A stretch of DNA of 64,000 bases from Sphagnum compactum (lineage: Eukaryota), in contig OZ234494.1 in NCBI GenBank assembly GCA_965153455.1, positions 9,052,001 to 9,116,000 on the forward strand, in the 5' to 3' direction. Shown piece by piece: positions 3,001 through 57,960 of the stretch. The position numbers and the translations under genes were made by a program. Numbering within the stretch: position 1 is the stretch's first letter; the number at the start of each line of letters is the position of its first letter. The notes beneath the pieces are model-generated. The model ran no database searches. It was not told the origin of the DNA and saw only the letters and a program-made list of their open reading frames with translations.

Positions 3001-3722
3001 ATCACAAGTTTGGTTTGCTTTCTCATCACTCTTCTTCTTCAAACAATTCCTCACAAAGTGTCCGGGTTTTTTACAATAAAAGCAAAGCTTTTCATTTGCC
3101 TTATGGGTTTTGTTAAGCAATGCGGCATTCTCTTTACTTTCACTTTCTTTTATTTTGGAAACCTCATGAAGCAATCGAGCGACGATGAATTGAAGGTCAA
3201 CATCCTTGGTTGACATGGACTCCAAATTCGTGACCAAGTTATCAAAAGATGGGGGAAGGCTCATGAGAAGTACCATGTAGACGTCCTCATCTTCAATGTT
3301 CACCTCAATGGAACGTAATTGATCCGCAAGCGCCTTCACCATGTTGATGTGCATAAGCAAGTCCTCCCCTTCTTGCATTTTGATGGTGAAGAACCTCCTT
3401 CGAAGAAACAACTTGTTTCCGATGGTCTTGGCTTCGTGGACACCGCAAAGTGTTTCCCAAGCGCTTTTGACATTTTGCAATATTAAATGTGTGCAAGTTG
3501 TGCATCCGTGAGATGTTCACAAAGTAGTGCAAATGCCTTGGTCGCCTTTTCGTTATAATCCGTGATTTGATCTTCATCATGGGGAATTGTTGCACTCCCA
3601 TCAACAAACTTCCAAAGCCCGTGCTTAAAAAGCATCATGCGCATCTTGAACTTCCAAAGGTGAAAGTTGCCACCATCAAACTTTTCCATGACTTTCAAAG
3701 ACTCCATTTGGAATGATGACAT
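1..3722 (-). pseudogene. Copia gag-pol polyprotein broken by several stops and frameshifts
   Basis: Gag start MSSFQMESLKVMEKFDGGNFHLWKFKM (ATG 3722); zinc knuckle CFYCKKPGHFVRNC; protease WIIDSGATQHM; GAG-pre-integrase LWHQRFGHLN..CEAC; integrase HSDVCGPM / SDNGG / QQNGVAER; RT QMDVKTAFLNG and YVDDL; RNase H DADWA..RRSTTG..LSTTEAEY. Premature stops at about 3483, 2992, 2794, 1433 and 76, plus frame changes. Confidence 0.95.
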
Positions 3723-4403
3723 TTTGTTGAACATAAATGCTAAAACAAACACTCTATGTTTTTTGTATTCAAATGAAGTGCAAGTGGGAGAATTTGAAGT
3801 TGAAAAACTTGCTAATGTTTGAAGACCTCACTTGAAATCTGTCCCACTCAATGGCTATATGTCACAAAACAAAACCCTTACAAGAAACCCTCAAACACTT
3901 GAAAAACTTTCTTGCACAAACTTGAAATTTGGCTTGAAACTTGTAGGATTGGCAAAGAACTTTCTTTAACACATTTGAAACTTAAACCTTTCAACAACTT
4001 GAAAAAAAAAACTTCTCTTACACCTCAAACTTCAATGTTGAAACTTTCAACAACTCGAAGAACTCTCTTCCACACACTTTTTCAAACTTCAACGTTGAAA
4101 ACCTCAAAAACTTGAAGAACTCTCTTTCACACTTTTGAACTTAAAACTTGAAACTTAAAGACTTGAAGAACACTCTTCCACACTTAAGAACTTACAACAC
4201 TTTGAAGAAGTCTCTTCCACACCTCCCACTCACTTGGAAAAGTTGTAAGCTCCTTATATGCCACCACTTGGAAATGAACTCCCACTCACTTTGCAAACTA
4301 AAAACCTTCTCTCAAAAGGATTCTCTCCTTTTTTCTATGCAATACAATCTCAGAACCTTTCACTACTTCTTGTTCTAACACAATGTCCTTTCTCTTGCTT
4401 GGT

Positions 4404-9009: not shown

Positions 9010-9190
9010 TCCTGTTTTGACCCCCTCTTTCCTTTTCCCTGAGGGCCTCCACTGCTAGTACATATATTTTCACTGCTCCTACATGTAGGACTACTATAAT
9101 TATTCTTGTAACTCTCTACATAATTAAATGTTGAGTTTCAGCATTTCATACCCCAAATTTAATAAAATTTTCTTACTTTGTGGACCTCAC
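9010..9190 (-). repeat. Inverted paralog of the sequence into which the 15-kb MULE inserted (empty site)
   Basis: Its reverse complement aligns with 28160-28312 (..GTATGAAATGCTGAAACTCA..TAATTATAGTAGTCCT..GCAGTGGAGG..AAAGGAAAGAGGG) and contains a single AGGAAAGAG. Confidence 0.8.
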
Positions 9191-12100
9191 TCAAAGGGGG
9201 GATGAGGGATGAAAGGGGGCCCAAAGACAGGGTGAAGACAGGGTGACTTTCTGGAAAATTCTATTACATGCCCTTTAATCACACAGTTTCCAAACAATTC
9301 AACAAAAATTATAGATGTTGGTAATACAGTCTTGGATGGATGGTAGGATATTGATCAAAATGAAAACACAACAATTCACTATGATATGATTTTGTATTTT
9401 GCACACTTGTGCACAGACTTCACATTGAGGGGCATGAACTACCCCATGTACCTTGGCATGTATATTGTTAATAAGTGCACATGTGCCTATACTCTATTTT
9501 CCAATTGGAATAATTGCATTGAATAGACAAAACACACACAACTTTAAGTAAATGGAAACAACCAAAAAATTCAGTATGTATTTATTCCATTGTGATCATA
9601 ATTTTATTTTTTAAATGACATTCTTGGCTTACTTTTTAATTCCACTCACAAAAGTTTTTGAGGATCTAGTTTATGGGTGATTGTTTAGAATCTATTGTAT
9701 GGTCATCCTTCAACAAGTGTAAACACAATTCCTATCATATGGTCATCTTTGGACAATTCCACAGACAATTTCAAATACAATTACCTCATTTCCAAGCCTA
9801 ACTAGATCCATTTTTATAACTATCTCTGACTCCTTTCCCTACCCACCAACATGGATATGAAAAGGCAAATTAACATTTGTCTTTTCATGTCCATGATATT
9901 TATATTAATTCAAATTAAATTTTGCATTAACATAAATAATGATGAATTATTGAAAACCATCTGAAAACCTAAGAAAAAAAAGCTTGATTGTCACTAATAA
10001 TGTGCAGTAGTGTAGAGCACAAATATGTAATATATGCCATTAACTACCAATGTAGAAAATAAAATTGTGTTGGGGTATCACAACCTACAAAAGTTCCTTC
10101 CTTCCCTACCTTTATTCTTTGGTTCACCAGGTTAGTTCCCTATTATAGGTATGCCTATTTGAAATGCAAATGGGAAGTAAGAAATCCGACACATTAAAAA
10201 AAAATAGGGCCCATTATAAGAATTAGGCCTCAATAGATTAGGTGTTAACTTTTTTATTAGTTTTTTTTAGGTTCAATGAATTTTGTTGATTGTCACATTT
10301 GTCTTGAAAACTTATCCAACATTTTTCAAAATGTTGAAAAAAGTTTTAAAATGGAAAGAAATCAAATGAAGGTGTTATTATTTGGGTGATATGTTTACTA
10401 CTGTATTTTCATGTACTATCTTGATAAATTTGATAAATTTGCAAATACAATTTTTAAAATAATGTTTTGAAGCAAAAACATTATTGTTCTAGACATACCT
10501 GTATAATTTCTAATTTGATGGAAATACATATTATAAATGTACTCCATTTCAATGTTAAGGTGTTGAAAAGTCAATTTAGATCCACCTTTTCGAAAACAAA
10601 TGCAATGCATGTTATTATCCCATGATATATTGGAGAAATGCGAAGATGGTACCATTGTTTTAATGTAAAAAAGATATTGGGAGTTAACCACACTTTAATA
10701 AAGTGTTTAACGTGATCAAGAAATATGTTGACATGCATATAACAAAGCATTAAAAATCGTGATTTATAATTAAACGTGAGTGAATACATTTGATTTCACA
10801 ACTTTGAAATTTTAATCCTTATACAATAAAAGCTTCCACCAATTTAAAAGACATCATTTGTGATTGTCATTTGCAACTAAATTTTTGTCACAAATGACAC
10901 TTGCGACTAAATATCAGCATAACAACAAGAAACAAGTTGTTAATAACGTTAGTCACAAGTGATAGATGAAATTATTTTTTTTATAATGATTTTATGCATG
11001 TATCCAAGGATGAGTTCATGCGACTACAATGCACAACCATAGCTTGTTCACACATGTACCCTAAGAATGTGACATGTGACATCATTTGGATTTCTCAAAA
11101 TATTTTGCCAAACAAATATTTCCTTTTTTTTTCAACCATTCGATTAAAGTAATTAAATTTTGCCACATGGTGGCCTAAGATTGTGCCATGTGGCAACTTA
11201 ATATTGCCTTATAATCATCAAGGTTTAACTTAGGGTTAGACCATTTATCATAAGCCACGAGGCACCTAAGCTAGGCCACCTAACCTAGTTAGGTGCCTAA
11301 GGTACCTAGCCTAATTTCAAGCTAGATGATGTGGCATCTAGGTTAAGCCTAAGCCACCTATCCATAGGTTTAGCCTAGGTAGGTCCTTAGGTTTAGGTCC
11401 AAAACTTTTACAACAAAATCCTATTTTATTTTAAGTTTAACCTTTTGGGTGGAGTCTATGTGATTAGCTCCTCCCACATGGCAATTGAAAAAATTGAATG
11501 TGTTTACTACACCAAACCAACCTAGTTATGTAGTTTGTGAATTTGAAAGGGAAGACAAACAATATGGGATAAAATTGTAGCTTAATCACATAATTATAAC
11601 CTAGTTGCAACTATACCCTAACACATACCATTGCATAGCCTATCTATTAAGTAGCATAGGTTCTTACTAGGTACCTATTTAGACAATATTTATGTTAAAT
11701 ACATATTTAGATAACCTCTAGATAATTATTTATTTTAAATACCTATTTAGATAGCTTTTAAATAATCACTTAAATAGCCTAAAAATAGTTAGTGGGTATG
11801 TAGGTACGTACGTAGGTATTTAGTAAGTAGGTAAGAGGCACATAATAGGTAGATAGGTATGTGGGAGGTAGGTTTTATTACATAGGTATATAGCTAGTAA
11901 AAAATAAATATTTTCTAAAAAGGAAGGTAGGTCTTTAATAAGTACGTAGATATATATGTATAGATATGTATGTATCATTAAATAGTCTATATGTGTAGCT
12001 ACTAAATAATATACGTACCTTATGCAACTATAATGTGACTATCTTGGTTACATGTGTAATTAAATGTATATATGATGTTGTATAAAGTACAAAAACATCA

Positions 12101-28041: not shown

Positions 28042-28795
28042 GTTTGACATTTGAACCTGCTATGAAAAGGAAAGAGCCGTCGTGCAATAAAGTTATACAG
28101 AAAGTCGCCCTCTCTCACAGAGTTCACCCCATATCCCCTCTTTCAGAGTCAGTGTTATCCCCAAAGAAAGGAAATTTTATTAAATCTCAGTATGAAATGC
28201 TGAAACTCAGCATTTAATGCACAAGGTTGGAGAGTAATTATAGTAGTCCTGCAGGTAGGAGCAATGAAAAGGTATGTAGCAGCAGTGGAGGCGCTCAGGA
28301 AAAAGGAAAGAGGGCTGGAGTGAATTAACAGCCACCAATGCACCAGTTGCGGATGAGCCCGTTGAGGCCATTTTCCGGATGAACGAAAATCCCATCCTCC
28401 CTGCCCGCATATATATATATTTTTCACCTCTTCTCTACCCCAAAATTTTCCCTCCTACCTACGACATACCTCCCCCCTCCTACCTACCATCTACCTCCCC
28501 CCTCCTGCCTACCACCTAACTCTCCCCCTCTTACCTACCACCTACCAACCCCTCCCCCTCACTCCATCGCCAGAGCTCCAGAGACGTTGAGCGGGAGCGA
28601 GCTTGGAGCAGGGGAACCTGGAGCGGGAGCGAGAGCTTGGAGCAGGGGAGCCTAGAGCTGGAGCGTGACCCACGCGAGACCCAGGTAAGCATCTTCCTTT
28701 TGTTTGTTTGTTTGTTTGTTTGTGGAGCTGCGCTGCACAAGATACGCAGCGCAGCTCCACAATGCAACTCTTTGTGTTGCAAGAAAAAAGAAAAA

Positions 28796-30113
28796 GAAGA
28801 AAGCGATGGTAGCAACGTTGACATCGCCTTCTTCTTTTTTGTGCAGCGCAAGAAAAAGAGGAAGAAGAAGGCGACGGCAGCTGCCATTGACTTCTTCTTC
28901 TTCGTGTTGCAAAAAAAAAAAGGAAGGAGAAGGCGACGGCAGCTGCCGTCGCCTTCTTCTTCCTGCTGTGGAGCTGCGCTGCGGCGCAACGTAGCTCCAC
29001 GAAAAAGGCGACGGCAGCTGCCGTCGCCTTCTTCTTCTTCGTGTTGCCAAAAAAAAAAAAAAAGAAGAAGGCGACGGCAGCTGCACAAGATACGCAGCGC
29101 AGCTCCACAATGCAGCTCTTTGTGTTGCAAGAAAAAAAAGAAGAAGAAGGCAATGGCAGCGTTGCTGCCGTCACCTTCTTCTTCTTTGTGTTGCAAGAAA
29201 AAAGAAAAAGAAGAAGGCGATGGCAGCGTTGCTGCCATCGCCTTCTTCTTTTTTGTGCAGCGCAAGAAAAAGAGGAAGAAGAAGGCGACGGTAGTTGCCG
29301 TCGCCTTCTTCTTCATCTTCGTGTTGCAAAATAAAAAAGGAAAAAGAAGGCGACGACAGCTGCCGTCGCCTTCTTCTTCCTGCTGTGGAGCTACGCTGCG
29401 CTGCCGTCGCCTTCTTCTTCTTCGTGTTGCAAAAAAAAAGGAAGAAGAAGGCGACGGCAGCTGTCGCGCCTTCTTCTTCTTCGTGTTGTAAAAAAAAAAG
29501 GAAGAAAATGGCGACGGCAGCTGCCGTCGCCTTCTTCTTCTTCTTTGTGTTGCAAGAAAAAAGATGAAGAAGGCGACGGCAGCTGCTTTCGCCTTCTTCT
29601 TCTTCGTGTTGCAAAAAAAAGAAGGAAGAAGAAGGCAACGGCAGCTGCTGTTGCCTTCTTCTTCCTGCTGTGGAGCTGCGCAGCTCCACGAAGAAGGCGA
29701 CGGCAGCTGTCGTCGCCTTCTTCTGTCTGGTGCGAAGCCGCGTTGTAGCGTAGCTCCACGAAGAAGGCGCATTGGTTTTTTTTTGTTGCTGCGCTGCAGC
29801 ATTGCAGCGCAGTGAAGAAGGCGACGGCAGCCACGCTATCGTTGCCTTTTTTTTTTTCTTGCTGCTGTGCTATAGACGAAGGCAACGGCATCTGCCGTCA
29901 CCTTCCTCTTTTGGTTTTGCTGCGCTGCAGCGCAGCAAAAGAAGGCGCCTTCTTCTTGTAGTTTTGCAACGTAGGAGAATTTATATTGAAGAAGAAGATG
30001 ACGACAGCTGCCAGCACCTTCTTCGATGGCTTTGCTATAAGGAAGTGGTGTCCTCCGCCTTTCTTTTATGGTTTTGCTGCGAAGAAGGTGACGGCAGCAA
30101 TGTCGTCACCTTC
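28796..30113. repeat. Array of ~20 palindromic units, consensus GAAGAAGGCGACGGCAG|CTGCCGTCGCCTTCTTC, with GTGTTGCAAAA-type spacers
   Basis: A 34-bp self-complementary core recurs about every 60-70 bp (e.g. 28861, 28928, 29003, 29210, 29275, 29441, 29501, 29565, 29628, 29690). It lies between a CAG|GTAAGC donor (28685) and a TTTAG acceptor (30201). Confidence 0.9.
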
Positions 30114-30215
30114 CTCTATGGTGGCAATTGTGTTTTTTTTCCTTTATTGTTGCGTATGCTTTAGTTCATTAGAATTAACAAACTGGTGGTTTTTGGTTTA
30201 GGGTTGGAGGTTGTA

Positions 30216-31934
30216 ATGGGTAGGGGAAGAAGATTAAGGAAGAGTGGTGGTGGTGAGTTGGAAGGCAAGAGGCAAGATTATGCTACAGCAGATGAGGCAA
30301 GTCTTTTGCCAAATGTTGCTGTTTCAGATGAGCCGATTCTTCTTTCATATGTTGCTGGAGGAGATGAGGCAAGTGCTGAGCCATTTGTTGCTGCATTAGA
30401 TGTGGCAATTCTTCAGCACAATGTTGCTGCATCAAATGTGGAAGTTATCGAGCAAAATGTTGCTGCATCAAATGTGGAAGTTATGCAGCAAAATGTTGCT
30501 GCATCAAATGCGGGAGGTGCCGAGCAAAATGTTGCTGCATCAAATGCAACAACTGCCCAGCAAAATGTTGCTGCATCAAATGCAGCAACTGCCCAACAAA
30601 ATGCCGCTACATTAAATGAAGCAATTGATGACCGAAGTGTTGCTGCATCAGATGTAACAATTGCTGATGGAAGTGTTGTTGCATCAGATCAGGAAATTGG
30701 TGAGAAAAATTGTGCTCTATCAAAATTGAAACACAAGGATAGCATTGGTATAGATTGTTTTAGAATTTGTGGACATTAGAAGATAGGACATTAGATTAAT
30801 TACAGATTAATAACATTGTACAAGTTTTCTTGAAGTTTAATTATCTCCGCACCTTCCATCATTTGTTGGAAGGTGCGGGAATTTTTTTGTCAAAATTTTT
30901 TTACTGCAATACCTTAAAACAGTTCATGTTTATAGGAGTAGTATGTGATTTTGTGATTTGATGTTTTGCAATACCTGCATTCTGTTTTTTGAACTTTCAG
31001 TTTTTGGGTTTAGGTTTGGAACTGGAAACTGAGCAAGCTTCTCAACCACTTGCACTTGTTTGTCCAGCTAATTTGGCTCAAAAGGATAAGGAATGGACAA
31101 AGGTTGGGTCTAAATGGAAGTGCAGAGTCGGTAATTGCACTGTGGCATATTGTGCAAAATTGCTATTGACCAAGCATCTGAAGGAGGCGCATGGTTTGGT
31201 GGCAGAAAAGTCCAAACCTGGGAGGCTTTCAACTGCTACAGGAGGTCCTCGACATCAGGACCATGCCAAGATGAACGCTCGCATTTTGGGAAATGCGATG
31301 GCTGTTCAAAGGAGGAATGACCAGAAAGTTGCTAGTCGTGCTCGTGCCAAAGTAGAGCGCGAGTGGAATCACCTGGTGGCTATTGCAAAACAGTGTCCAC
31401 CACTGCCAAAACCTGCTTTGGTTAGATTAGCCCAAGAATAATTGTTGAAGGTTTTAGGCCTCAATGCTTGGGGCGTGGGCAGTGTGGCGCCAGATGCAAT
31501 TGTACGAATGGAGAAGGATGAAGACTTATAGGGGACGATCCGATCCACCCGTTGTGCATATGCACGAGAATTAAAGATGGCATGGGATGTGAAGAACTGA
31601 GAGTGAGAGTCCAGTAAAACATCTCGAAAAAAACAGCTGGGAGATGTTTTGGATTTTCATGAATCTAGAATGATTCATGGAAGGTAAGAAACAATAATAA
31701 GTAATGTTTATTGTTTTTTATTGTATTTCATCCAAGGTGTGTTTAGGGTTAATTTTGTGATTTTTGGGTGTTTACAGGGTGCAGGACCAGACAAAGGCCC
31801 AGTTTGTTACAAATGCAATTCAAGTAGAGATGCAACGCCGGCATTTGTACACTGCTCGTCATGCAGCAAAGGCTGCAAATGCAGTAGCTGCATACCGCGC
31901 TAAACACAGGATTGTAGATAGTGATATGTGTTAG
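30216..31934 (+). pseudogene. MULE accessory gene: ~436-aa protein with 12-aa repeats and one C2H2 zinc finger; 4 in-frame stops
   Basis: Predicted exons 30216-30699, 31014-31683 and 31778-31934 with GT-AG introns and consistent phases (1311 nt). C2H2 motif CRVGNCTVAYCAKLLLTKHLKEAH. Stops TAA 31439, TAG 31529, TGA 31598 and TGA 31604; no frameshift needed. Confidence 0.7.
30414..30699 (+). repeat. 36-bp coding tandem repeat (~8 units, xQNVAASNxxxx)
   Basis: AATGTTGCTGCATCAAATG recurs with a 36-nt period (30421, 30457, ...). Confidence 0.85.
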
Positions 31935-32339
31935 GGTTTCACTTTATATAATTAATTAGGTTTTGTAACCCTTTCATTTTTTGGACTACCCAATTTTGAA
32001 CTTCAATCCTTTGATATGTTATAGAGAACCAACACTTTTTTTTCAATAGGTTCTTTAGTAATTTTTCATGCACCCATTTTTGTACATCTTTTATCAATAT
32101 AATAGTACCTTCTATTCACACTTGTTGATGGGTATATGGTTAATCATATATGTCTTCTTTGTCATAATTTTTTTAGTACTAGAGATGTAAGAATCAAACC
32201 AAAGATCAAAATGAACATTATGCAATACTTATATCTAATATAATACGACTCACATCACCTGAAGACTTTTTAAACAATCCACACATTTTAAACATATAAT
32301 ACCTACATCATTCTCTATTATGAACTCCATTTTCAAAAA

Positions 32340-32625
32340 TGCAATACCCACATATAGGTCCAAAATAGCCATATGCATTTTGCATTCGTTGCAATACCCG
32401 CATATAGGTCCCATAATAGCCACTGGGTTTATAAACATTCCTTGCAATACCCGCATATAGGTCCCAAAAATTGCTGATAGTCTTCATTCCTTGCAATACC
32501 CGCATATAGGTCCCATAATAGCCACTGGGTTTTTTAAACATTCCTTGCAATACCCGCATATAGTTCCCATATAACCCCTGGGTTTTTTTCCATCTCTTGC
32601 AATACTCGCATGTAGGTCCCATAAT
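32340..32625. repeat. ~50-54-bp tandem repeat (6 units) with core GCAATACCCGCATATAGGTCCC
   Basis: GCAATAC starts at about 32341, 32391, 32444, 32493, 32547 and 32599. Confidence 0.85.
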
Positions 32626-34465
32626 AGGTGCTGGTTTTTACATTCACTATGAAACTTACATTTTGTAATAAAATTAATTTAGAATAATAATTAATTTTGG
32701 GTATATAAAAAGACATAATTTTGGTACCCAGGCCACTTTTGAAATGACATTACATGCGAGTATTGCATTGAGGGTTTAGGGTCTTCACATATGGTTTCCT
32801 TCAATCACCTATGTATTATTTCAATATGATCTTGCATGTAGGTATTTTATCTAGGCCTTGATCTTCATTCAAAGGCGCACCCAAACTACATATTGGGTAT
32901 TTCAAAGCGACCTTACATGTGGGTATTACATTTAAGGTTGCCCTTTCATTGTAGGTTTTACCTTATTCACCTATGGGTTATTTTCAAATAAACATGAATA
33001 TGGCTATTGCATTTAGGGTTAAGGTTTCATATAATTTTGCAATATCCACACACATACTTACTTTCACCATTTGTAAATTTAGCCATAATGTTTAATAATT
33101 AAATAAAATTTGTGACAAAACACAAAAGAAGGTATGTCTTTTACCATTTGTTAATATCCAAGCTGATCTCTTTCAATTTCTTTAAAAATATGTATTGCAT
33201 TTTTTTACATATAAAATTCCCCCTATAATGCACCGTAGATTTATTTTATTTACTATTAATTTGTAAAAAAATTGTTAATTAATTTAGGGTTTCCCAAACT
33301 CTAAATTTGAATCATACTCCAATAGTATATACTTATAACAATTATATGGAAAAATGTGCTTTCTTTTTGATAAATTCTTTTAGTTCAAATTTAAAATGTT
33401 ATAACACAATAAGGATTAGACATTAAACTATCATAAATGCTTATTAGGCTTACGTCGCCTAGGCTAGTATATTACCTATATGACTAGTAGGTTTACTTAA
33501 TGCATTCAATCACCTTCAATACCTACATAGACCATCTAAGATATTAATTTAGAAAGCTTACATTAATGAATAAATTACATAATAGGCCTATATTAAGTAG
33601 GTAGCCTATCAGGTAGTTAATTAGGTTACTTAACAAATAGCTATATTTGTAGGGATTAGGGTTTTAGGGTTTACCCAACCCTAACCTATGAAAACCCAAC
33701 CCTAAACCTTAAAATATTATATGTATTGATTTGAATCAACAGTATAATTCCATAATATCATTATTTATATATTAGGTGTTATAAATAACAATATATTTGG
33801 ACCAATATTTAAACCAATATTATACATCATAAAAAATAAAGTTTACATAAGGACTTGTGTTATATATCTATAAAATATAAAATATTTTTGACCCACTATA
33901 TGAATATTTTAACCAAGAAATTATTTACTATATATCAGAAAAGTATAAATTAAAATTTCAATTAAACATAGGATTAATATATGGGAGAGATCATTTTTAT
34001 TATTATGTGAAACAGAAAAGAAGAAAGTAGAAAATTACGTGCTTTGAATTTTTTTTAAACATAATTTAAAATCTTGTTAAATTAAAGACTTTATATTTAT
34101 GTTTTTAGTATGAATATACAACTTTAAAAGGGGAAAAAAAATATGAACATCGTTGAAAAATATTTAAGCTTGAACTTTTTATTTTTTGATCTTGACAAAC
34201 TTTGTATTGCATTTAGGGTTGGGTTTTCACATAAGGTTTGTTTTTTACCTTTGTGTGATAACTCCAACCTAATTTTCCCAATCTCTTTTAGGAAGATATA
34301 GAATGAAATTGTATTGTTTCACATATGTCTAAACCCTAAAACATTTCGGCCAATTTAATATAAAATATTTATGATAATTAATGAATTATCAATAAAATTT
34401 GTCATATAATTAAATAATTAATAGACCATTATTTTAGATAATTTAAATGATTAATTATGAAGAAT

Positions 34466-35580
34466 TAGATAATCATTTATTTATTTAATATAATTAACTA
34501 ATCATTTGGCTTAAATTTATTTACTTGAAAATAAAAAGTTGGATTTAATCAGATTAATTAATTTGATATTTGATTAACTAACTTTAGTATACATTTTTTT
34601 TAATAAGTTATTGGAATCACTATTTAAGATAATTATTCCATGTTATAGATTGCAAGTTCAACTTTTTCATGAAAATTTCTTACACTAAAATAAGCTTGAT
34701 CACAATTGTCATTGTACTATTTGTTCCACAAACAATAGAACCTCTTTTAAAATTCATGAAAAAAAATAAGAATCATGGATTCCTAATCAACAACCCCAAC
34801 CTCCATACACACCTTTGTTAGCATATGATTTTGAAATTAACTAATTATTTTAGAATGACCCAAAATGCAGGTATTGCATTTAGGGTAGGATCTTCATTTA
34901 AAGAAGGCTTAAACCCCACATGCATATTTTTTGTGTGACCCAAAGTGCAGGTATTGCATTTAGGGTAGGATCTTCATATAAAGATGCTTAAACCCACATG
35001 GGTACTTTCGAAATGGCCTAAAATGCAGGTATTGCATTTAGGGTAAGGTTTTTTCAAAGTGACTTTGCGTCTGCATATTGTGTTTAGGGCTAGGTCTTCA
35101 CTTAAGGGTATCCAAACCTTTTAGATGGGTTTTTTTTTTAAACGTGTGGGTATTGCATTTAGGCTTGTTTTTCATTTAAACTTGCAATACCTGAACTTAT
35201 ACTTACCTCTACTAACTGGAATGTTGGGGTTTCATTGCAATACCTACATCCGTACTTACCTTTACAAACTGGAATTTTGGGGCATGATTGCAATACTTGC
35301 AATTGTACTTACTTTTACCAACTGGGATTTTGGGGCCTAGTTACAATACCTGCATCTAACACTAATATTATCATTATCCTTGTGTTTTTGCATTTCACAC
35401 TTTTTGTGCTTATTACTTGGAAACAATAATAACCTTTGTGCCATATTAGACTTCATGTGTGTGTTGAATACATGATGTTCAAATAATTTGGGGTATGATT
35501 TCCTCCATACAAAATTGATTCTAAAAGAAAATTTTTAGTGCTAATGGCAACAATCTTGATTAGTAATTGAAACATTTATT
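34466..35580 (+). repeat. ~1.1-kb segment repeated directly at 40901-42169 (partial third copy ~40390-40860)
   Basis: Both copies start TAGATAATCATTTATTTATTT, contain the 79-bp array and the TTTTACCAACTGG block, and end GTAATTGA(A/G)ACATTTATT. Confidence 0.85.
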
Positions 35581-38273
35581 CATGACATCGTTTAGTACGT
35601 ACATTTGTGTGATTGAGCATTGTTTCATGCCAATCTTTGAGCCGTTTGACACTATTTCCCAATCCATCTTCTACACGACGTAACACCAATCCTGGGTGTG
35701 AAATTGCATTTGCCTTTGTGAGGCGTATGTTACGAATATTACATGCCAATACTCTCATGTGTGAGGTGGCATGTTCACAAAGTGTCACATCGCCTTCTTT
35801 ACATTCATTTGTGATCTCTTGCATTGTAGTGACCAATTGTGCAAGAGCCCTTTCCATTGGGGTTGATGAATTTATTGTCTCATTAGACCCTACAATGGCA
35901 CCCATAGGGAGATCATTTTGCTCCATGTTCATGAGCCCATCAAATTTCATGATCCCATCATCACCTTCAAGATGATCATCTTCGTCATCATCACTGGACT
36001 CCATATCATCTGGAATATGTTGCGGGTCTGCAAACATGTGACCCAACCCTCCACGATGTGATCCATACCATGTTCCACAGTAATGAATGATATCCTCTTG
36101 AGAAATGTCTGTGCATGTGAGAATGACCTTAATTTGGTGTTTACACATGTTCCCTCGCAATGCCCATTCGCATGTGCAACAAAACATTTCGGTGAATGGG
36201 AATTTCACCGTGTAAATAACATTGGGAAGGCGTTGGCTCCGTACGGCCCAAGCTCCATCACTCTCAAGGGTTGGTTGGTACACATGGCTGAGTGGAATAA
36301 GGGTTGCCTTTTCCACACTTCGTGTAATAATGGCCTCCATAACCTTGTTTTTTATGAAACCCCTCTTTTTCATTTCCAATGTGTGCATGTAGTGGTGTGC
36401 AATGGTTGTTGTTAATCGCCACACCAACCAGTCAATCCTACGCCCTCTAAGGCCTTTTGTGTCAAGAGCAAGCCAACGTTTCAATGCACCATGATATGAT
36501 TCAATGCTCGCTTGGGTGTCTTGGTTGGAATGGGGCACTTTTCGAACACCCACCATCCATAATTCTACAAACATAAACACAATACATAAGGATGAATAAC
36601 ATTATACAAAATAATTTTGAATGCTGAACCATGATAAATATTATCACTTACCAAATTGATGGTAATAAGTCCAGAAATAGTTTGTCCACGCATCACCAGG
36701 CCTATGTTTATGAAGGCTTTCTCTCACAGCAACCCTCCCACGCTCTTTGAAGTCATCAATTGTTTCTCCATGATTGATGGACATGTACATCACATCATGA
36801 AGGTCTTGGAGGATTCCACCCCGCACTTCCACATCTTTGATTTTTTCAATACCACGTAGGCGCCATGCTTTGAGAACATGCCAACAACAAAGGTAGATGG
36901 GAACCTTGTCCATACCCCATACGACCCTAATAAGGACACATATGCAATAAAATCTCCATGAGTGGATGGGGTTAGTACAACATAAAATGCATTTGAAGTA
37001 ATCAAGAATTTTATGAAAGATATTAAAAAACATTTAAGGAAATAAACACACAAAGTCGATACTAGGTATAGAACTAACCGTAATGCCTTCAATTCTTGAG
37101 GTGCATCATCAACGAGAAAACATGATGGTTTCCAATGCGGCATGTGTGATAACATCTTCTCTTTTAATGGTTTCAACCATTCGATCAAATCTTGCACTGT
37201 TTGCCTACTTGTAATGATCCAGGCTAAAGGGACACCCGTGCGATGATCATCAAATCCCATCAAGGTGAATAGATGGAATTTCATGTCATTTGTGCCAAAT
37301 GTTGCATCCATAGAAATGGCACCATTGTGACCATATGATAGCATGGACTCACATTGAGTTGGTGTTTGAATACCTATGGTGAATGGGACTTGAGTTCCGT
37401 TCATTTCACCAACATCTTGGAAAAAGAACACATCTTCTGGATGTTGGAGAGCCCAAGACCGAATTGAAATTGCAGGGTTAGTGTGTAAACGCTAACTCCC
37501 TTTCTTATGTTTCCGATCCAAACATGCAATGTCTTGAAGCCGAATGAAATCATCTCGTGTCATGCTTTGACCCGCATTCACACGTTCCCACCAAATTGCT
37601 TTATGCTTGTCATATATTTGTTTGGTCGTATAACCTAAGCTTAGTTGGGCCCATATGTGATCTTTCAATGCTTGTGACATGCGTGGAGCATAACGAGACA
37701 TACGAGAAATGGACTCTGGGTCATGCTCACCATGTGCGAATGACCCATCAATTCGTGTATGGGCCTTATGATAAATTGTGATCTCAGCCACATCAGGTCG
37801 TGTGTATAGACGTTTGATTGAGAATGACGCTAGGCATCCTTGTTTAATAGATCGAATGTGGGTTGAATTTTCTCGATAGTCCTCTGGTCCATATGCGCAT
37901 TGATACCTAAACCAAAAAACTTTCAAAACGTAAATTATTACATCTTTGGTATATGAAATAAAGAAATTAAAAAGGTTAATGCCATAAATGTTTACCATGT
38001 ATGCCCGAGGTGGTTTTTGATAGTTGGTCGCTTGACATCCGTTTGGCTTGGAAAGTTTTTGTAAACACTCCATTCCACAGGGGTGCTCGTATCCCCTCGT
38101 TCACCTTCCAAGAATTCGGAGATGCGAGCATATGGAACATAAACAAATTGAATGGTCACTTTATTTTGCCCTCCATGGCGTATCCCAGATGTCCACACCA
38201 AGTCTTTGTTTGAGAAAGGGGACTTGATGGGGTTTTGGACATGAATGGAATGGGACTTTGGAACCCTTGGCAT
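35576..38273 (-). pseudogene. MULE transposase with SWIM zinc finger (AT4G13970/AT1G60560-like), ~789 aa, 4 exons, single nonsense mutation
   Basis: Exons 38273-37996, 37906-37079, 36926-36652 and 36564-35576 (GT-AG, 2370 nt, in frame). N-terminal YQCAYGPED..KQGC..YHKAH; catalytic ISMDATFGTN, FLVDD, CCWH and IESYHGALK; SWIM CTCEWALRGNMCKH. TAG at 37492-37494 (probably from TGG). Confidence 0.9.
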
Positions 38274-38592
38274 GATTGAAAGAAGTAGGACAAATTCCTG
38301 CATCAAGAAAATTTATAATTCTCTAAGCATTCATCATTGAACAAAAACCCAAAATGCAATACATACATGGCTCCTTTAAAATCAATGTTGTTACTTGGAA
38401 TTCCCATTACAACACCCATATCATGATATAAAAAACCTACTATTCCAATGTACATAACGTACAATACTTGCATTATGAACCCATATACTAAAACAAACTT
38501 TGGCAATACCCACATTGAGCTATTAAACCTCCCATCATTGAAAATTTTCTCATATGCAATACCCGTATTGTACCTTAAACCCATAATGTTTG

Positions 38593-39838
38593 AAAACCCC
38601 ATGTAGCAATACCCACATAATGATAGTTAATGCACACTGTTTGAGAGGTGCAAAATGCAATACCTACCTTAAGCCATAAAACCCACACTGGTTGTGGGTA
38701 GTCAATGCATTATTCGCATATGGGTATGAAAAAATAAACTACAAAGAAATATTGAATATGAAATATCCATGTAAAAGTATAAAACCTTTATCTATGCTTG
38801 TATACTTAATGAAACTTGATGCCCTTTCTATATCCAACAACTAGGAAATGAAAAGAGTTTGAATTATGAAAATATAAACAAAAAAACAAAAGAAGTAACA
38901 AGAGACAAATGCATACCTTTAAGAATAAAAGATGACAACGGTCCACCAAAGTTTAAAGTCCCAATTGAAAACGCAACCCTAAAAAATCATAACTCGTACA
39001 AAAATGGGTTAAAAAATATTAAACTCTAGGAACTATGGAACATATGGAAACAAAGGAAATTCAAATTATGGTATAGATCTAAACAAGTGAAAAGATCAAA
39101 AAGCAATACAATGAGCAAAATTTAAAGTATAAACCTTAGGTTTTGAAATATATGAACCAAATTCTTATACACTAAATAATAAAGCATAACCTTAAAAATC
39201 CAAATGATATTTTGCAAAACGCCATGTAGCAATACCCACATAATGATAATTAATGCACACTGTTTGAAAGGTGCAAAATGCAATACCTGCCTTAAGCCAT
39301 AAAACCCACACTGGTTGTGGGTAGTCAATGCATTATCCGCATATGGGTATGAAAAAATAAACTACAAAGAAATATTGAATATGAAATATCCATGTAAAAG
39401 TATAAAACCTTTATCTATGCTTGTATACTTAATGAAACTTGATGCCTTTTCTATATCCAACAACTAGGAAATGAAAAGAGGTTGAATTGTGAAAATATAA
39501 GCAAAAAAACAAAAGAAGTAACAAGAGACAAATGCATACCTTTAAGAATAAAAGATGACAACGTTCCACCAAAGTTTATAGTCCCAATTGAAAACGCAAC
39601 CCTAAAAAATCATAACTCGTACAAAAATGGGTTAGAAAATATTAAACTCTAGGAACTATGGAACATATGGAAACAAAGGAAATTCAAATTATGGTATAGA
39701 TTTAAACAAGTGAAAAGATCAAAATCCAATACAATGAGCAAAATTTAGAGTATAAACCTTAAGTTCTAAAATATATGAACCAAATTCTTATACACTAAAT
39801 AATAAAGCATAACCTTAAAAATCCAAATGATATTTTGC
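38593..39838 (+). repeat. Tandem duplication of ~623 bp upstream of the transposase
   Basis: ATGTAGCAATACCCACATAATGATA at 38601 and 39224; both copies end AATGATATTTTGC (39215 / 39838). Confidence 0.9.
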
Positions 39839-41299
39839 CATAAGCCTTATTACAACCCTAATTATACAAACCCTAACAAAAAAAAGTCTTAGTGATATAT
39901 GTCCTAAACCCAAAAAACTATACAAACTATACAAATTATATAATGCAAAATACGTTAATCTTTAAAAACAATCAAATAAATTTCATACAAAACCAAAAGA
40001 GAAGATATGTCTCCAACTTAATTTTTGTGTGATCTCTCCAACTTAATTTTTTCCACTCTTTTTGAAGAAGATATAGAATGCAATTGTATTACTTCACATA
40101 TGTGTAAACCCTAAAATTTTCCCCCCAAATTTAGCCTACTTTAGATTAATTACTATACATTTGTGAAAAACTTATTAATTAATTTATGTGTCTCAACCCT
40201 AAACCTAATGGTTAAGTTAGTAGGGTATGTAATTAATAGAGTAATTAGGTTAGTAGGGTAGGTGGTTAGTACAATAGCTAAGTCAGTAGGATAACTAGTT
40301 ATTAGGGTAGCTGTGTCAGTAGGGGATAATAAATAAGGTACCAAGGTTGGTGCAATACTTATGAGGGTAGGAAAGTGAGCAGGGTAGCTATTCGGAATGA
40401 CCCCAAATGCAGGTATTGCATTTAGGGTGGGATCTTCATATAAAGAACCCTAAACCCCACATGCGTACTTTCGGAGTGACCCTAAATGCAGGTATTGCAT
40501 TTAGGGTAAGATCTTCGTATAAAGATGCTTAAACCCACATGCGTACTTTCGAAATGGCCCGAAATGCAGGTATTGCATTTAGGGTAAGGTTTTTTCAAAG
40601 TGACTTTGCGTCTGCATATTGTGTTTAGGGCTAGGTCTTCACTTAAGGGTATCCAAACCATTTAAATGGGTTTTTTTGAAACGTGGGTATTACATTTAGG
40701 TTTGTTTTTTCATTTCAACTTGAAATACCCAAACTTATACTTACCTTTACCAACTAGAATTTTGGGGTTTCGTTGCAATACCTACACCCGTACTTACTTT
40801 TACCAACTGGAATTTTGGGGCATAATTTCAATACTTGCACTTGTACTTATTTTTACCAAACCCTAACAAAAAAAAGTCTTAGTGATATATGCCCTACACA
40901 TTAGATAATCATTTATTTATTTGGAATAATCAACTTATCATTTGGCTTAATTTTATTTACTTGGATAATAAAAAGTTGGATCTAAAAATCAGATTGATTA
41001 ATTTGAGATTTGATTAATTAACTTAAGTATATTTTTATTTTAATAAGTTATTGAAATCACTATTTAAGATAATTATTCCATGTTATAGATTGTAAGTTTA
41101 GTTTTTTCATGAAAAATTCCTACACCAAGATAAGCTTGATCACAATTGTCATTGTATTATTTGATCCACAAACAATACAACCTCTTTTCAAATTCATGAA
41201 AAGAAGTAAGAATCATGGAATTCCTAATCAACAACCCTAACCTCTATACACACCTTTGTTAGCATATTAATTTGAAATTAACTAACTATTTTTGTGTGC

Positions 41300-41650
41300 C
41301 CCAAAATGCAGGTATTGCATTTAGGGTAGGATCTTCATATAAAGAAGCTTAAACCCTACATGCGTCCTTTCGGAGTGGCCCAAAATGCAGGTATTGCATT
41401 TAGGGTAGGATTTTCGTATAAAGATGCTTAAACCCCACATGCGTATTTTTTGTGTGGCCCAAAATGCAAGTATTGCATTTAGGGTAGGATCTTCATATAA
41501 AGAAGCTTAAACCCTACATGTGTCCTTTCGGAGTGGCCCAAATTGCAGGTATTGCATTTAGGGTAGGATCTTCATATAAAGAAAGCTTAAACCCTACATG
41601 CGTCCTTTCGGAGTGGCCCAAATTGCAGGTATTGCATTTAGGGTTGGGTT
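41300..41650 (+). repeat. 79-80-bp tandem repeat (5 units); sister arrays at 34860-35050, 40400-40590 and 42800-43080
   Basis: Unit CCCAAAATGCAGGTATTGCATTTAGGGTAGGATCTTCATATAAAGAAGCTTAAACCCTACATGCG...; (G/A)GTATTGCAT at 41311, 41390, 41469, 41548 and 41628. Confidence 0.9.
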
Positions 41651-44233
41651 ATTTCAAAATGATTTTGCATGTGCATATTGTGTTTAGGGCTAGGTCTTCA
41701 CTTAAAGGTATCCAAACCATTTAGATGGGTTTTTTTGAAACGTGGGTATTGCATTTAGGCTTGTTTTTTCATTTCAACTTGAAATACCCAAACTTATATT
41801 TACCTCTACCAACTGGAATTTTGGGGTTTCGTTGCAATACCTACACCCGTACTTACTTTTACCAACTGGAATTTTGGGGTATTACTTGCACTTGTATTTA
41901 CTTTTATCAACTGGGATTTTGGGGCCTAATTATAATACTTGCATTTAACACTAATATTATCATTATCCTTGTGTTTTTGCATTTCACACTTTTTGTGTTT
42001 ATTACTTGGAAACAATAATAAGCTTTGTGCCATATTAGACTTCATGTGTGTGTTGAATACATGATGTTCAAAGAATTTGGGCTATGGTTTCCTCCATACA
42101 AAATTGATTCTAAAACAAAAAATTTAGTGCCAATGGCAACAATCTTGATTAGTAATTGAGACATTTATTAAAGTAAAATATCAGTTTTGAAATATATGAA
42201 CCAAATTCCTATACATTAAATCATAAAGCATAACCTTACAAATCCAAATGATATTTTGACATAAGGCTTATTACAACCCTAATTATACAAACCCTAACAA
42301 AAAGAAAATTTAGTGATATATGCCCTAAACCCAAAAAACTATACAAACTATACAAATCATATAATGCAAAATAAACAAATTTAAAAGAATATAGGAAAAA
42401 AATTAGAAACCAAAATTCAAAGGTTTTAAATTATAAATATTTATTAACTGAAAGAAAATACGTTAATCTTTAAAAATAATCAAATAAATTTCGTACAAAA
42501 CCAAAAAAGAAGATATGTCTTTTACATTTGTGTGATTTTTCCAACCTAATTTTTCCACTCTTTTTGAAGAAGGTATAAAATGCAATTGTATTACTTCACA
42601 TGTGTGTAAACCCTAAAAATTTCCCCCCAAATTTAGCTTACTTTAAATTAATTACTATACATTTATGGAAAACTTATCAATTAATTTATGTGTCTCAACC
42701 CTAAACCTAATGGTTAAGTTAGTAGGGTATGTAATTAATAGAGTAGCTAGGTTAGTAGGGTAGGTGGTTAGTACAGTAGCTTGGTTAGTGGTGTGACCCA
42801 AAATGTAAGTATTGCATTTAGGGTATGATCTTTGTATAAAGAAATGCTTAAACCACACATGCGTACTTTCGAAATGGCCCAAAATGCAGGTATTGCATTT
42901 AGGGTAGGATATTTGTATAAAGAAAGCTTGAACCCCACATGCGTACTTTCGAAATGGCCCAAAATGCAGGTATTGCATTTAGGGTAGGATCTTTATATAA
43001 AGAAAGCTTGAACCCCACATGCGTACTTTCGAAATGGCCCAAAATGCAGGTATTGCATTTAGGGTAGGGTTTTTAGGGTAGGGTATGTAATTAATAGGGT
43101 AGTTAGGTTAGTAGGGTAGGTGGTGAGTACAGTAGCTAGGTAGAAAAGTGAACAGGGTAGAAAAGTGAGGAAGGTAGCTATGTGTGAGGTCAGGTCCAGG
43201 GAAAAACGAGCAAGAACCAAAAAAAAAAAGTACAATGGTCAGCAGCAAAAAGAAATGGACTGTCATGAACCCCATCCGGCGCCGAATGAAAAAACGCAAC
43301 CCATCCAGTGGACAGAACGGCCAACTGGTGCATTGGTGGCTGTTAATTCACTCTGGCCAGGAAAGAGGGGACGAAACTCCGTTTACCACCAATATTGGTG
43401 GAGAAACTAGTTTGGTCCCAGTTATTTCGTTTTTGTAAAATTTCATTCCCAATTATGCATTTGATGCCCTATTATGCCGAAACTGACCGTTCTCGCTCCC
43501 TTAATCTGACTTTACAGATAACTTTAATGAGCCACTTGTTATAAGATCTCACATCTGATAGGTTTTTTGAATACCCAATGATGCTGGTCAATAATTAATC
43601 AATCAATTAGAAACAACTACTTGTAGGTCTTTATCACGTTTTAAACATAATTAATGCCCAATTAAGCAAACAGGTGGATTGATTGATCACTCTTCCATGA
43701 CTGCTCTGCAGATAACCGTTTAGAGCAGTTACATCTTTTATCTGGATAGGTATACCTGATGGGTTAAAACTTTAAAAAACTGGTTAATTATGTATCAGAT
43801 CCCATATGGGGATGATGCACCCCCTCAAATTAGCATGTGCCAATGAATGCTTACCGGGCAGAATTGGTCGTTCATGGCCCAATTAATTGACATTAAGGTC
43901 TGGGTTCGCAGACTATGTCATTTTCTTGATCACATTATCTGATATAGTGTTCGAGTGAGGATCTAGGCTCAGCCCCAGACATAAATGTCTCGAGTTGGCC
44001 TTGCCTTGCCCATTATATCGGATATGTCACCTAGTTTGCATTATCCGACTTGCTAATTTCTTTACCCAACATAACAAGCAGTGTTTAACCAGGGTTTAAC
44101 CATTCTATAGAATGTTAAAAGCAAAGGGAATGCTCAGCCAGAATAAGCACCACATTCCAATCAAGATAATAGTCCTTCCCTTGCTTTCAAGGGTCACTGA
44201 CCTTGTGCCAAATGGTGAGAGTATGGAGCAATG

Positions 44234-57441: not shown

Positions 57442-57735
57442 CAGTTTTCTTCGTATTTCTGTGCGAATTGAGTTGCTGCTGTGGGTGTCGTGCGGGGTAG
57501 TCCTTTCTCTGTGGAGTTGGGTTTTGGAATCCAGAGCTTGATCTATCGAGAAGAAACGTGAAGTGGAGAGAGAGTTGGGGTTGTTGTTGGAAGCCAGAGC
57601 CAATGAGCTGGTGAGAAAAGGGTAAGAGTGGCAGGAGAATAGTTGTGGGTGTTGGAACCCAGAGCATGAGCTGCTTCTGATCAGAAAAAAAAGGGAGTGA
57701 GGAGAGGGGAGGGAGAGAGATTTAGGACGAAGAAG

Positions 57736-57960
57736 ATGGCGAGGAATGATTGCTTGACGAGGGTGGTGGCAGGTGTGGGAGTCGGGGGAGCGGTAGGCGG
57801 GGCTATTGGAGCTGTGTACGGCACCTACGAGGCTTTCAGGTATAGAATCCCGGGCCTTCTCAAGGTTCGTTATGTGGGGCAGACCACCTTGGGTAGTGCT
57901 GCAGTTTTCGGCCTGTTTCTCGGAGCTGGTAGCCTGATCCACTGCGGGAAGAATTACTAG
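57736..57960 (+). CDS. ROMO1: Reactive oxygen species modulator 1 / Mgr2-like mitochondrial inner-membrane protein (74 aa)
   Basis: MARNDCLTRVVAGVGVGGAVGGAIGAVYGTYEAFRYRIPGLLKVRYVGQTTLGSAAVFGLFLGAGSLIHCGKNY, the characteristic plant Romo1/Mgr2 Gly-rich two-helix sequence; intact single-exon ORF. Confidence 0.93.
   Translation: MARNDCLTRVVAGVGVGGAVGGAIGAVYGTYEAFRYRIPGLLKVRYVGQTTLGSAAVFGLFLGAGSLIHCGKNY

Follow-up and report, generated by a model that had tools for sequence, protein, structure and literature searches.

The DNA analysed here is a stretch of 64 kb (64,000 nucleotides, hereafter referred to as the window) from the moss Sphagnum compactum, corresponding to positions 9,052,001 to 9,116,000 on the forward strand of contig OZ234494.1 (assembly GCA_965153455.1). 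All coordinates given below refer to the window. Positions 28313-43358 are occupied by a Mutator-type DNA transposon, or Mutator-like element (MULE), of approximately 15 kb, which is delimited by terminal inverted repeats (TIRs), flanked by a target site duplication (TSD) and carries a transposase gene on the minus strand. The boundaries of the element are defined by the following features:

28313..28349, plus strand: left TIR of 37 bp, at the end distal to the transposase start; pairs with the right TIR, and the end is conserved in other copies
43322..43358, minus strand: right TIR of 37 bp, at the end proximal to the transposase start; pairs with the left TIR, and the end is conserved in other copies
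28304..28312, no strand: left TSD copy of 9 bp, AGGAAAGAG, identical to the right copy (9/9)
43359..43367, no strand: right TSD copy of 9 bp, AGGAAAGAG, identical to the left copy (9/9)

The TIRs at 28313-28349 and 43322-43358 match at 35 of 37 positions, and their inner 32 bases are identical. This 32-bp core was detected exactly twice in the 64-kb window with up to three mismatches allowed, and 100 shuffles yielded no occurrence. TSDs of MULEs typically comprise about 9 bp, with a range of 8 to 11 bp. Paralogues of the flanking repeat (window positions 9022-9213 and the loci L042/L046, L059, L070 and L074) run uninterrupted across the insertion point and contain one copy of the TSD-like 9-mer; the same paralogues of the left flank continue into sequence resembling the right flank in the window. 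Moreover, 60 contigs of the DNA sequencing run X11 depart from the window at position 28311, with the same continuation as the empty-site paralogues. Since the read-through paralogues and the contig ends at 28311 agree, the element boundaries and the interpretation of the 9-mer as a TSD stand. The joints 28236>43414 and 28308>43414 were considered as excision or empty alleles and rejected, as their coordinates lie off the expected empty site and their sides comprise at most 28 nucleotides. The insertion site of the MULE lies within another high-copy repeat, represented by the flanks 28155-28312 and 43368-43440 and by the paralogue at 9022-9213 on the minus strand, and the X11 contig depth of the flanks is several-fold above that of the element.

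The transposase gene was modelled on the minus strand with four exons and three GT-AG introns of 89, 152 and 87 nucleotides, giving exactly 789 codons without a frameshift:

37996..38273, minus strand: exon 1, coding part, with the ATG at 38273; corresponds in the alignment to the N-terminus of the seed-plant proteins described below
37079..37906, minus strand: exon 2, with the CCHH zinc-finger region, a helical region and the putative catalytic residues D293 and D359/D360; Pfam MULE match with E=1e-08
36652..36926, minus strand: exon 3, with the CCWH motif; homology-guided GT-AG model
35576..36564, minus strand: exon 4, with IESYH (putative catalytic E), the SWIM-like CxC...CxH motif, an acidic tail and the stop codon; model and RNA joint
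36927..37078, minus strand: intron 2 of 152 nucleotides; modelled by homology only, from its GT-AG ends and because it is required for collinearity with relatives
37492..37494 (plus-strand numbering), minus strand: single in-frame TAG at codon 230 in the translation of the four-exon model
38298..39539, minus strand: GT..AG intron of 1242 nucleotides in the 5' untranslated region (UTR); joint 38296>39539 (cut +1) in RNA runs, splice ends checked

In the 789-codon translation, the motifs DATFG, FLVDD, CCWH and IESYH start at positions 293, 356, 382 and 481, respectively, and the CxC...CxH motif spans positions 590-603. The Pfam domain MULE (PF10551) was detected on exon 2 with 36.0 bits, compared with a gathering cut-off of 27.6 bits (E=1e-08). 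The residues D293, D359/360 and E482 as well as the CCWH motif from position 382 align with the DDE and CxxH motifs of related proteins and are predicted to be catalytic, and the CxC...CxH motif aligns with the SWIM finger of the relatives. At the beginning of exon 2, the residues C3, C24 and H58 are invariant and H49 is near-invariant in an alignment of 35 sequences, which defines a CCHH zinc-finger region. The AlphaFold model of exon 2 reached a mean predicted local distance difference test (pLDDT) value of 80.4, with the N-terminal finger (exon-2 residues 1-70) modelled at low confidence; the assignment of this finger to a putative WRKY/GCM1-like CCHH fold is a guess. Neither the FAR1 domain PF03101 nor the MuDR domain PF03108 was matched by the exon translations of the window in the Pfam search, and no other MULE was found in the 64-kb window.

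A scan of metagenome contigs yielded at least 601 pattern matches, of which at least 571 encode a relative of the transposase; the multiple dispersed copies that characterise MULEs are thus represented by these relatives. The sequencing runs carrying the gene are labelled as moss, plant, air or soil metagenome, along with two coded organisms. The locus counts given in the following refer to the best 80 of the at least 571 relatives (L001-L080), which show 78-92% protein identity and 86-97% DNA identity to the window over exon 2. The codon at the position of the in-frame stop is TGG in 64 of the 80 loci, TAG in eight, TGA in five, TAA in two and CAG in one. Accordingly, TGG represents the ancestral codon, and 15 of the 16 deviating codons are products of G-to-A changes. 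The differences between these loci and window positions 37081-37905 are mostly C>T and G>A, a pattern that fits cytosine deamination of silenced repeats. Both element ends are present in five loci. Locus L003 (11.3 kb) is flanked by an exact 9-bp duplication (9/9), L005 and L057 show 9-bp duplications after a boundary shift of one base, and L062 and L063, apparently one place assembled twice, have a decayed duplication pair (6/9). Three independent loci (L003, L005 and L057) consequently contain both ends along with 9-bp duplications. The window copy, whose 789 codons contain a single internal stop, is the best preserved among those examined.

These results bear out the structural part of the original prediction, which had described a MULE bounded by TIRs and a TSD and a spliced open reading frame (ORF) of about 789 amino acids carrying D, D, CxxH, E and SWIM motifs and broken by one TAG, all of which were found; it had also anticipated TGG at position 37492, now seen in 64 of 80 loci and in all covering RNA and DNA contigs, and further copies with TIRs and TSDs, now represented by L003, L005 and L057. 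They also bear on the view that the gene is a domesticated host gene of the moss situated between chance inverted repeats. A long, nearly intact and transcribed ORF would be expected of such a gene, whereas the existence of at least 571 relatives, the stop codons in most of the 80 examined, the occurrence of the same ends around copies at other sites with their own TSDs and the presence of empty-site paralogues reduce the probability of this view to a negligible level.

Transcription was evaluated with three RNA runs (X15, X16 and X17) and the DNA run X11, using contigs only and a likeness of at least 90. Three GT..AG joints on the strand of the gene were detected in RNA runs only, and they coincide with the modelled exon borders for introns 1 and 3. 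The joint 36564>36652 corresponds to intron 3 and the joint 37903>37993 (cut +3) to intron 1, the latter being present in all three RNA runs with a shorter side of 255 nucleotides in X17. The joint 38296>39539, which represents the 1242-nucleotide intron of the 5' UTR, was found in X15, X16 and X17 and is missing from X11. Several of the splice joints rest on sides of just 26-30 nucleotides. Position 37493 is occupied by C (T>C, codon TGG) in every covering contig of both RNA and DNA runs. The spliced RNA contigs along with this base indicate that sister copies without the stop codon are transcribed and spliced; each RNA run contains between 51 and 81 contigs with a likeness of 99% or more to the stretch that they cover.

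The relationships of the transposase were deduced from protein searches. Exon 2 was compared with 1.84 billion representative proteins, which resulted in 1197 matches with E<=0.001, 50 of them reaching 1e-30. Among the best 150 of these matches, 22 proteins comprise at least 480 amino acids, and all 21 named ones are land-plant proteins. The named land-plant relatives originate from the liverworts Riccia and Calypogeia, the fern Adiantum, the conifers Cryptomeria and Taxus, and Amborella and other angiosperms. A word-indexed search with exon 2 yielded the Ceratodon purpureus protein with 43% identity and 19 angiosperm proteins with 31-36% identity over 97-100% of the query; the E-values of the angiosperm proteins range from 2e-49 to 9e-42 in 18 cases, and the nineteenth has 3e-34. 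The alignment of the relatives with the window gene starts at the first methionine and extends through the SWIM finger, and matches to PF03101 and PF03108 were found in none of 13 scanned relatives.

Searches that were started from angiosperm relatives revealed a conserved family in seed plants. The Castanea protein P0010 (697 amino acids) yielded 630 protein matches, the best 120 of which include members with identities to Castanea of 70-85% in eudicots, 72% in Amborella, 69% in Ginkgo (Gb_37568) and 65% in Cryptomeria. The Pterospermum protein P0057 yielded 651 matches among proteins of about 650-1200 amino acids, including those of Carica and Tarenaya. The conserved clade was recovered with a support of 99-100 in both phylogenetic trees described below and can be divided into three groups, each with Ginkgo and angiosperm members:

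Group A: about 697 amino acids; Castanea P0010 and Ginkgo Gb_37568
Group B1: so far Lamiaceae and Ginkgo only; Perilla P0064 and Ginkgo Gb_34654
Group B2: about 800-1100 amino acids; Theobroma P0296 and Ginkgo Gb_09265, along with the Carica and Tarenaya proteins

The clade is characterised by short branches, a branching order that follows the species tree and about one cluster per species and group. In the family, the first catalytic aspartate (D1) is replaced by H in mesangiosperm members of group A and by N in Amborella, whereas it is intact in the window protein, and the CxxH motif is changed to CxWR in gymnosperm and B members. No match to the Pfam domain MULE was obtained for P0010, P0057 and P0064 (E<=0.01), and the gymnosperm members P0249 and P0280 still score 27.4 and 23 bits, respectively. 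Accordingly, the angiosperm members, as represented by these three proteins, have drifted past the Pfam detection of the MULE domain.

The conserved family is presumably that of the Arabidopsis genes AT1G60560 and AT4G13970, an assignment that agrees with annotation names. Family members of other species are annotated as 'zinc ion binding' or 'SWIM zinc finger family protein', and the accessible part of PMC6265505 contains a table in which AT4G13970 is described as 'zinc ion binding'. Arabidopsis proteins are missing from the matches listed in the three protein searches, and as no Arabidopsis sequence was retrieved, the label AT4G13970/AT1G60560 relies on annotation names only. The kinship proposed by the original prediction is therefore retained insofar as the best full-length relatives belong to the conserved seed-plant SWIM family and not to FAR1, MURA or MUSTANG, with PF03101 and PF03108 missing from the 13 relatives scanned, and its specific gene label has the standing of a name.

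It was also considered whether the likeness to the seed-plant family merely reflects the general likeness within the MULE superfamily, the seed-plant genes having originated from another MULE lineage or from no transposon at all. The failure of P0010 (group A) and P0057 (group B2) to match the Pfam domain would fit this view, and the trees contain no outgroup by which the specificity of the grouping could be gauged. On the other hand, 18 of the 19 angiosperm proteins are matched by exon 2 alone with E-values between 1e-42 and 1e-49, and the nineteenth with 3e-34, at 97-100% coverage, the alignment extends over the N-terminal block, the zinc finger, the DDE core and the SWIM motif, the gymnosperm members have retained scores on the MULE profile, and all named full-length proteins among the best 150 of the 1197 matches fall into the land-plant SWIM/MULE group. 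General likeness is thus an improbable explanation.

Two trees were calculated, one with 32 rows, from which the fragmentary proteins P0034, P0058, P0069, P0124 and P0132 had been dropped, and one with 41 rows. Both resulted from quick searches, with support values from the Shimodaira-Hasegawa-like approximate likelihood ratio test (SH-aLRT) only and with midpoint drawing. The window protein is sister to the Ceratodon purpureus protein with a support of 100, and the two are joined, with weaker support, by proteins of liverworts and ferns. The window protein is located outside the conserved seed-plant clade of 25 rows (SH-aLRT 99 in the 41-row tree). The nearest neighbours of the conserved clade, with a support of 93-95, are long-branch proteins of seed plants, including the Taxus cluster, a Cryptomeria protein and the Amborella protein LOC18422177. 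The cluster of Taxus chinensis P0087 contains 18 members of at least 90% identity on many large contigs, with an intact DATFG motif, and that of Cryptomeria japonica P0034 comprises three members of at least 90% identity on different large contigs. These multicopy relatives in conifers are probably transposon copies, with a closer relationship to the conserved seed-plant genes than that of the moss element. The Amborella protein P0052 (LOC18422177, 809 amino acids) forms a long branch that belongs to none of the three conserved groups, and its D2, CxxH, E and SWIM motifs are eroded; it may represent either another case of domestication or a copy in decay.

The original prediction had regarded the element as a transposon form of the AT4G13970/AT1G60560 lineage in a non-flowering plant and had called it a candidate source for the domestication. 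In the stronger version of this reading, the AT4G13970/AT1G60560-like angiosperm genes would have been domesticated from the moss lineage itself. The full-length collinearity and the identity of 33-39% with the seed-plant family are in agreement with such an origin, as is D1, which is intact in the window protein and H or N in angiosperm members of group A. By contrast, the presence of Ginkgo and Cryptomeria orthologues in the conserved clade places the domestication before the angiosperms, the moss pair is placed with proteins of liverworts and ferns, and the transposon-like proteins of Taxus and Cryptomeria are closer to the conserved clade. Moreover, a topology in which the moss pair was forced beside the conserved clade was rejected (lnL -31.3; p-value of the approximately unbiased test, p-AU, 0.0044), although the group tested was named after inspection of the tree and long branches are involved. 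An origin of the angiosperm genes from the moss lineage is therefore very improbable, and the claim of a candidate source is not supported. As judged from these sequence comparisons, the moss element is a cousin of the conserved family and neither its source nor its nearest transposon relative.

Taken together, the data are best explained by the assumption that the window contains one copy of a large, transcribed MULE family of a bryophyte, which constitutes a distinct lineage without the DNA-binding domains of FAR1 and MuDR and a living cousin of the conserved seed-plant family; we assign a probability of about 0.85 to this interpretation. The element would have moved by a cut-and-paste mechanism. 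By analogy with MULE, hAT and IS256 transposases, the N-terminal CCHH region of the enzyme may bind the 37-bp inverted ends, and an RNase-H-like DDE centre formed by D293, D359/360, E482 and the CxxH motif may cut and rejoin the DNA. Integration at a 9-bp staggered cut would have resulted in the duplication of AGGAAAGAG, and in this way the window copy would have been inserted into another repeat. The internal duplication of 2.8 kb and a single G-to-A change that turned TGG into TAG would be later events. Owing to the TAG in its transposase gene, the window copy should be unable to make its own enzyme, and it might still be mobilised in trans by transcribed and spliced sister copies with TGG. 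The same lineage would have given rise to the conserved seed-plant family before the split of gymnosperms and angiosperms.

Several observations weigh against this interpretation. The SWIM domain (PF04434) of the window copy reached only 9.9 bits compared with a cut-off of 19.6 bits. In fold searches with exon 2, the matches to DDE transposases and integrases (Hermes, ISCth4, Mos1 and retroviral integrase cores) were weak, with Foldseek E-values of at least 0.0075, VIA Z values of at most 6.0 and an unrelated viral protein as the top VIA row; such matches are compatible with an RNase-H-like core in the modelled structure and prove nothing. The trees are unrooted and contain no outgroup from MURA, FAR1 or MUSTANG. 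The tables of the RNA runs X15 and X16 are nearly identical and may represent one data set. All RNA contigs that were seen to span intron 2 (records 11, 19 and 28) still contain it; if it is kept in the transcript, the reading frame would end early, ahead of the CxxH motif. The retention occurs although intron 1 or intron 3 is spliced in the same contigs (records 19 and 28), and it could be due to regulated retention, slow splicing or an assembly effect. Finally, an intact transposase was found in none of the 80 loci, and as the full open frame was never seen, a current autonomous activity of the family is unsupported. Exon 2 is open in two loci only (L001 and L009), all four exon pieces are covered in six loci according to tblastn, each with 8-20 stops, and a stricter exon projection by blastn yielded no fully covered locus among the 80.

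The state of the copies could also mean that the window contains an old, dead insertion of an immobile family and that the RNA originates from read-through or from the transcription of silenced repeats. Apart from the missing intact transposase, the divergence between copies of 3-14%, mostly due to transitions, and the internal duplication of the window copy would be in line with this explanation. It is countered by the exact TSD, by just two mismatches between the TIRs, by the single stop in 789 codons as opposed to 8-20 in the six fully covered relatives, and by the correctly spliced TGG transcripts and the 51-81 closely matching RNA contigs per run. A dead insertion hence appears rather unlikely, if far from negligible, and it is plausible that the element was recently mobile, as had originally been suggested. 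The interpretation as one copy of a transcribed bryophyte MULE family is retained in the following.

Apart from the transposase gene, the element contains these further features:

28769..29724, no strand: subterminal G+C-rich palindromic tandem arrays with units of 62-67 bp near the left end; inverted and tandem repeats, with similar region matches in L003
30165..30776, plus strand: orfA, an open frame with a coding tandem repeat of 36 bp; weakly conserved and of uncertain status
30962..31438, plus strand: orfB, a second frame conserved in the family, with a C2H2-like zinc-finger motif and convergent with the transposase gene
40389..43155, no strand: about 2.8 kb of extra sequence in the window copy; an internal duplication mixing 5' and 3' parts of the element, with tandem arrays of 79-80 bp

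Matches to orfA were obtained by tblastn in nine loci with 29-43% identity (67% in one high-scoring segment pair, HSP, of 24 residues), and stops occur in nine of 11 HSPs. The orfB frame is present in 21 of the 80 loci with 53-79% identity and is free of stops in L003, L005, L045 and L057. No Pfam family was assigned to orfB, even with E-values up to 5, and its Atlas neighbours, with scores of 0.84-0.88, include some C2H2 proteins and are to be regarded as leads only. The RNA contig depth over the orfB region is similar to that of the transposase. The extra stretch of 2.8 kb is located between the right end and the gene and is absent in L003, L005 and L057 according to the comparison of these loci, and a further tandem duplication of about 750 bp is situated upstream of the gene (38464-39952) in the window copy. 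Elsewhere in the window, positions 79-3827 on the minus strand contain frames of a Ty1/copia-type retrotransposon with RVT_2 (E=3e-77), integrase core, gag and zinc knuckle, and an open frame at 57670-57957 on the plus strand matches Romo1, the reactive mitochondrial oxygen species modulator 1 (E=4e-22); no other host gene was clearly recognised in the window.

Both MULE transposons and their domesticated transposases are already well known, and with respect to transposon biology the window element is one more MULE family. Its main value is that of a pointer to an old and unstudied domestication. As the transposase is a distant cousin of the conserved seed-plant family, the latter probably began as a tamed transposon. 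On balance, we favour the view that Mutator transposases were domesticated in a third family, so far unrecognised, which is made up of the seed-plant SWIM genes with their three groups. As each group has Ginkgo orthologues, this family would be older than FAR1/FRS and MUSTANG. Living and transcribed members of the ancestral transposon lineage would persist in mosses, liverworts, ferns and conifers, the window element being the best-preserved moss copy seen. The family is hardly mentioned in the open literature searched; in the parts of the articles accessible, the gene codes AT4G13970 and AT1G60560 were found in incidental mentions only (PMC6265505, PMC6323297), and Hoen and Bureau (2015) may list them; both codes are absent from ten supplementary files of PMC5715367 and from two files of PMC4948706. 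The phrase 'SWIM zinc finger family' never occurred in a title or abstract within the same literature, and PTHR33977 yielded no match. The accessible text of the review PMC7385966 names just FHY3/FAR1, DAYSLEEPER and MUSTANG and no gene of the conserved SWIM family. A preserved and transcribed transposon relative with defined ends may thus serve as an anchor for the origin of the seed-plant family; a comparison with the element could reveal residues that were lost on domestication and could provide a basis for testing which DNA is bound by the shared N-terminal zinc-finger region.

Compared with known systems, the most distant likeness is that of exon-2 residues of about 140-275 to the RNase-H-like cores in the structures of ISCth4 of the IS256 family and of the hAT transposase Hermes. 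This weak fold likeness (Foldseek E 0.0075-0.012, probability 0.95-0.99; VIA Z 5.3-5.6; sequence identity 10-13%) remains below the level that indicates kinship. The closest named relative is the Ceratodon purpureus protein KC19_1G317700 (P0001, 497 amino acids), which is 43% identical on exon 2 and 45-46% identical in an alignment of about 487 columns. It contains all of the motifs DATFG, DD, CxxH, IESYH and SWIM and differs in having a shorter gene model and a gap in the middle region. MuDR/MURA and MUSTANG belong to the same superfamily and share PF10551, the DDE residues with CxxH, a SWIM-like C-terminal motif and the 9-bp TSD, whereas no match to PF03108 was found in the window transposase and its 13 scanned relatives, and orfB is without a detectable family. 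The TIRs of MuDR comprise about 200 bp, as opposed to 37 bp in the window element, and the convergent second frame orfB recalls the mudrA/mudrB layout.

The FAR1/FHY3/FRS proteins provide a precedent for MULE transposases that became host regulators and are described, in the portions of the articles consulted, as proteins in which a MULE core is combined with a SWIM finger and a DNA-binding domain of the zinc-finger type (PMC8599713, PMC13306707). They differ from the proteins considered here by PF03101, which is absent from the exon translations of the window and from the 13 relatives. According to the accessible part of PMC4948706, the MUSTANG (MUG) genes are absent from gymnosperms and arose after the split from them, whereas the conserved SWIM family has gymnosperm members. 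This family is collinear with the window protein through the N-terminal block, the CCHH finger, the DDE core, the CxxH motif, the catalytic E and the SWIM finger, with 33-39% identity on exon 2. It is slowly evolving, whereas the window gene is a multicopy transposon gene that is bounded by TIRs and a TSD and located outside the conserved clade.

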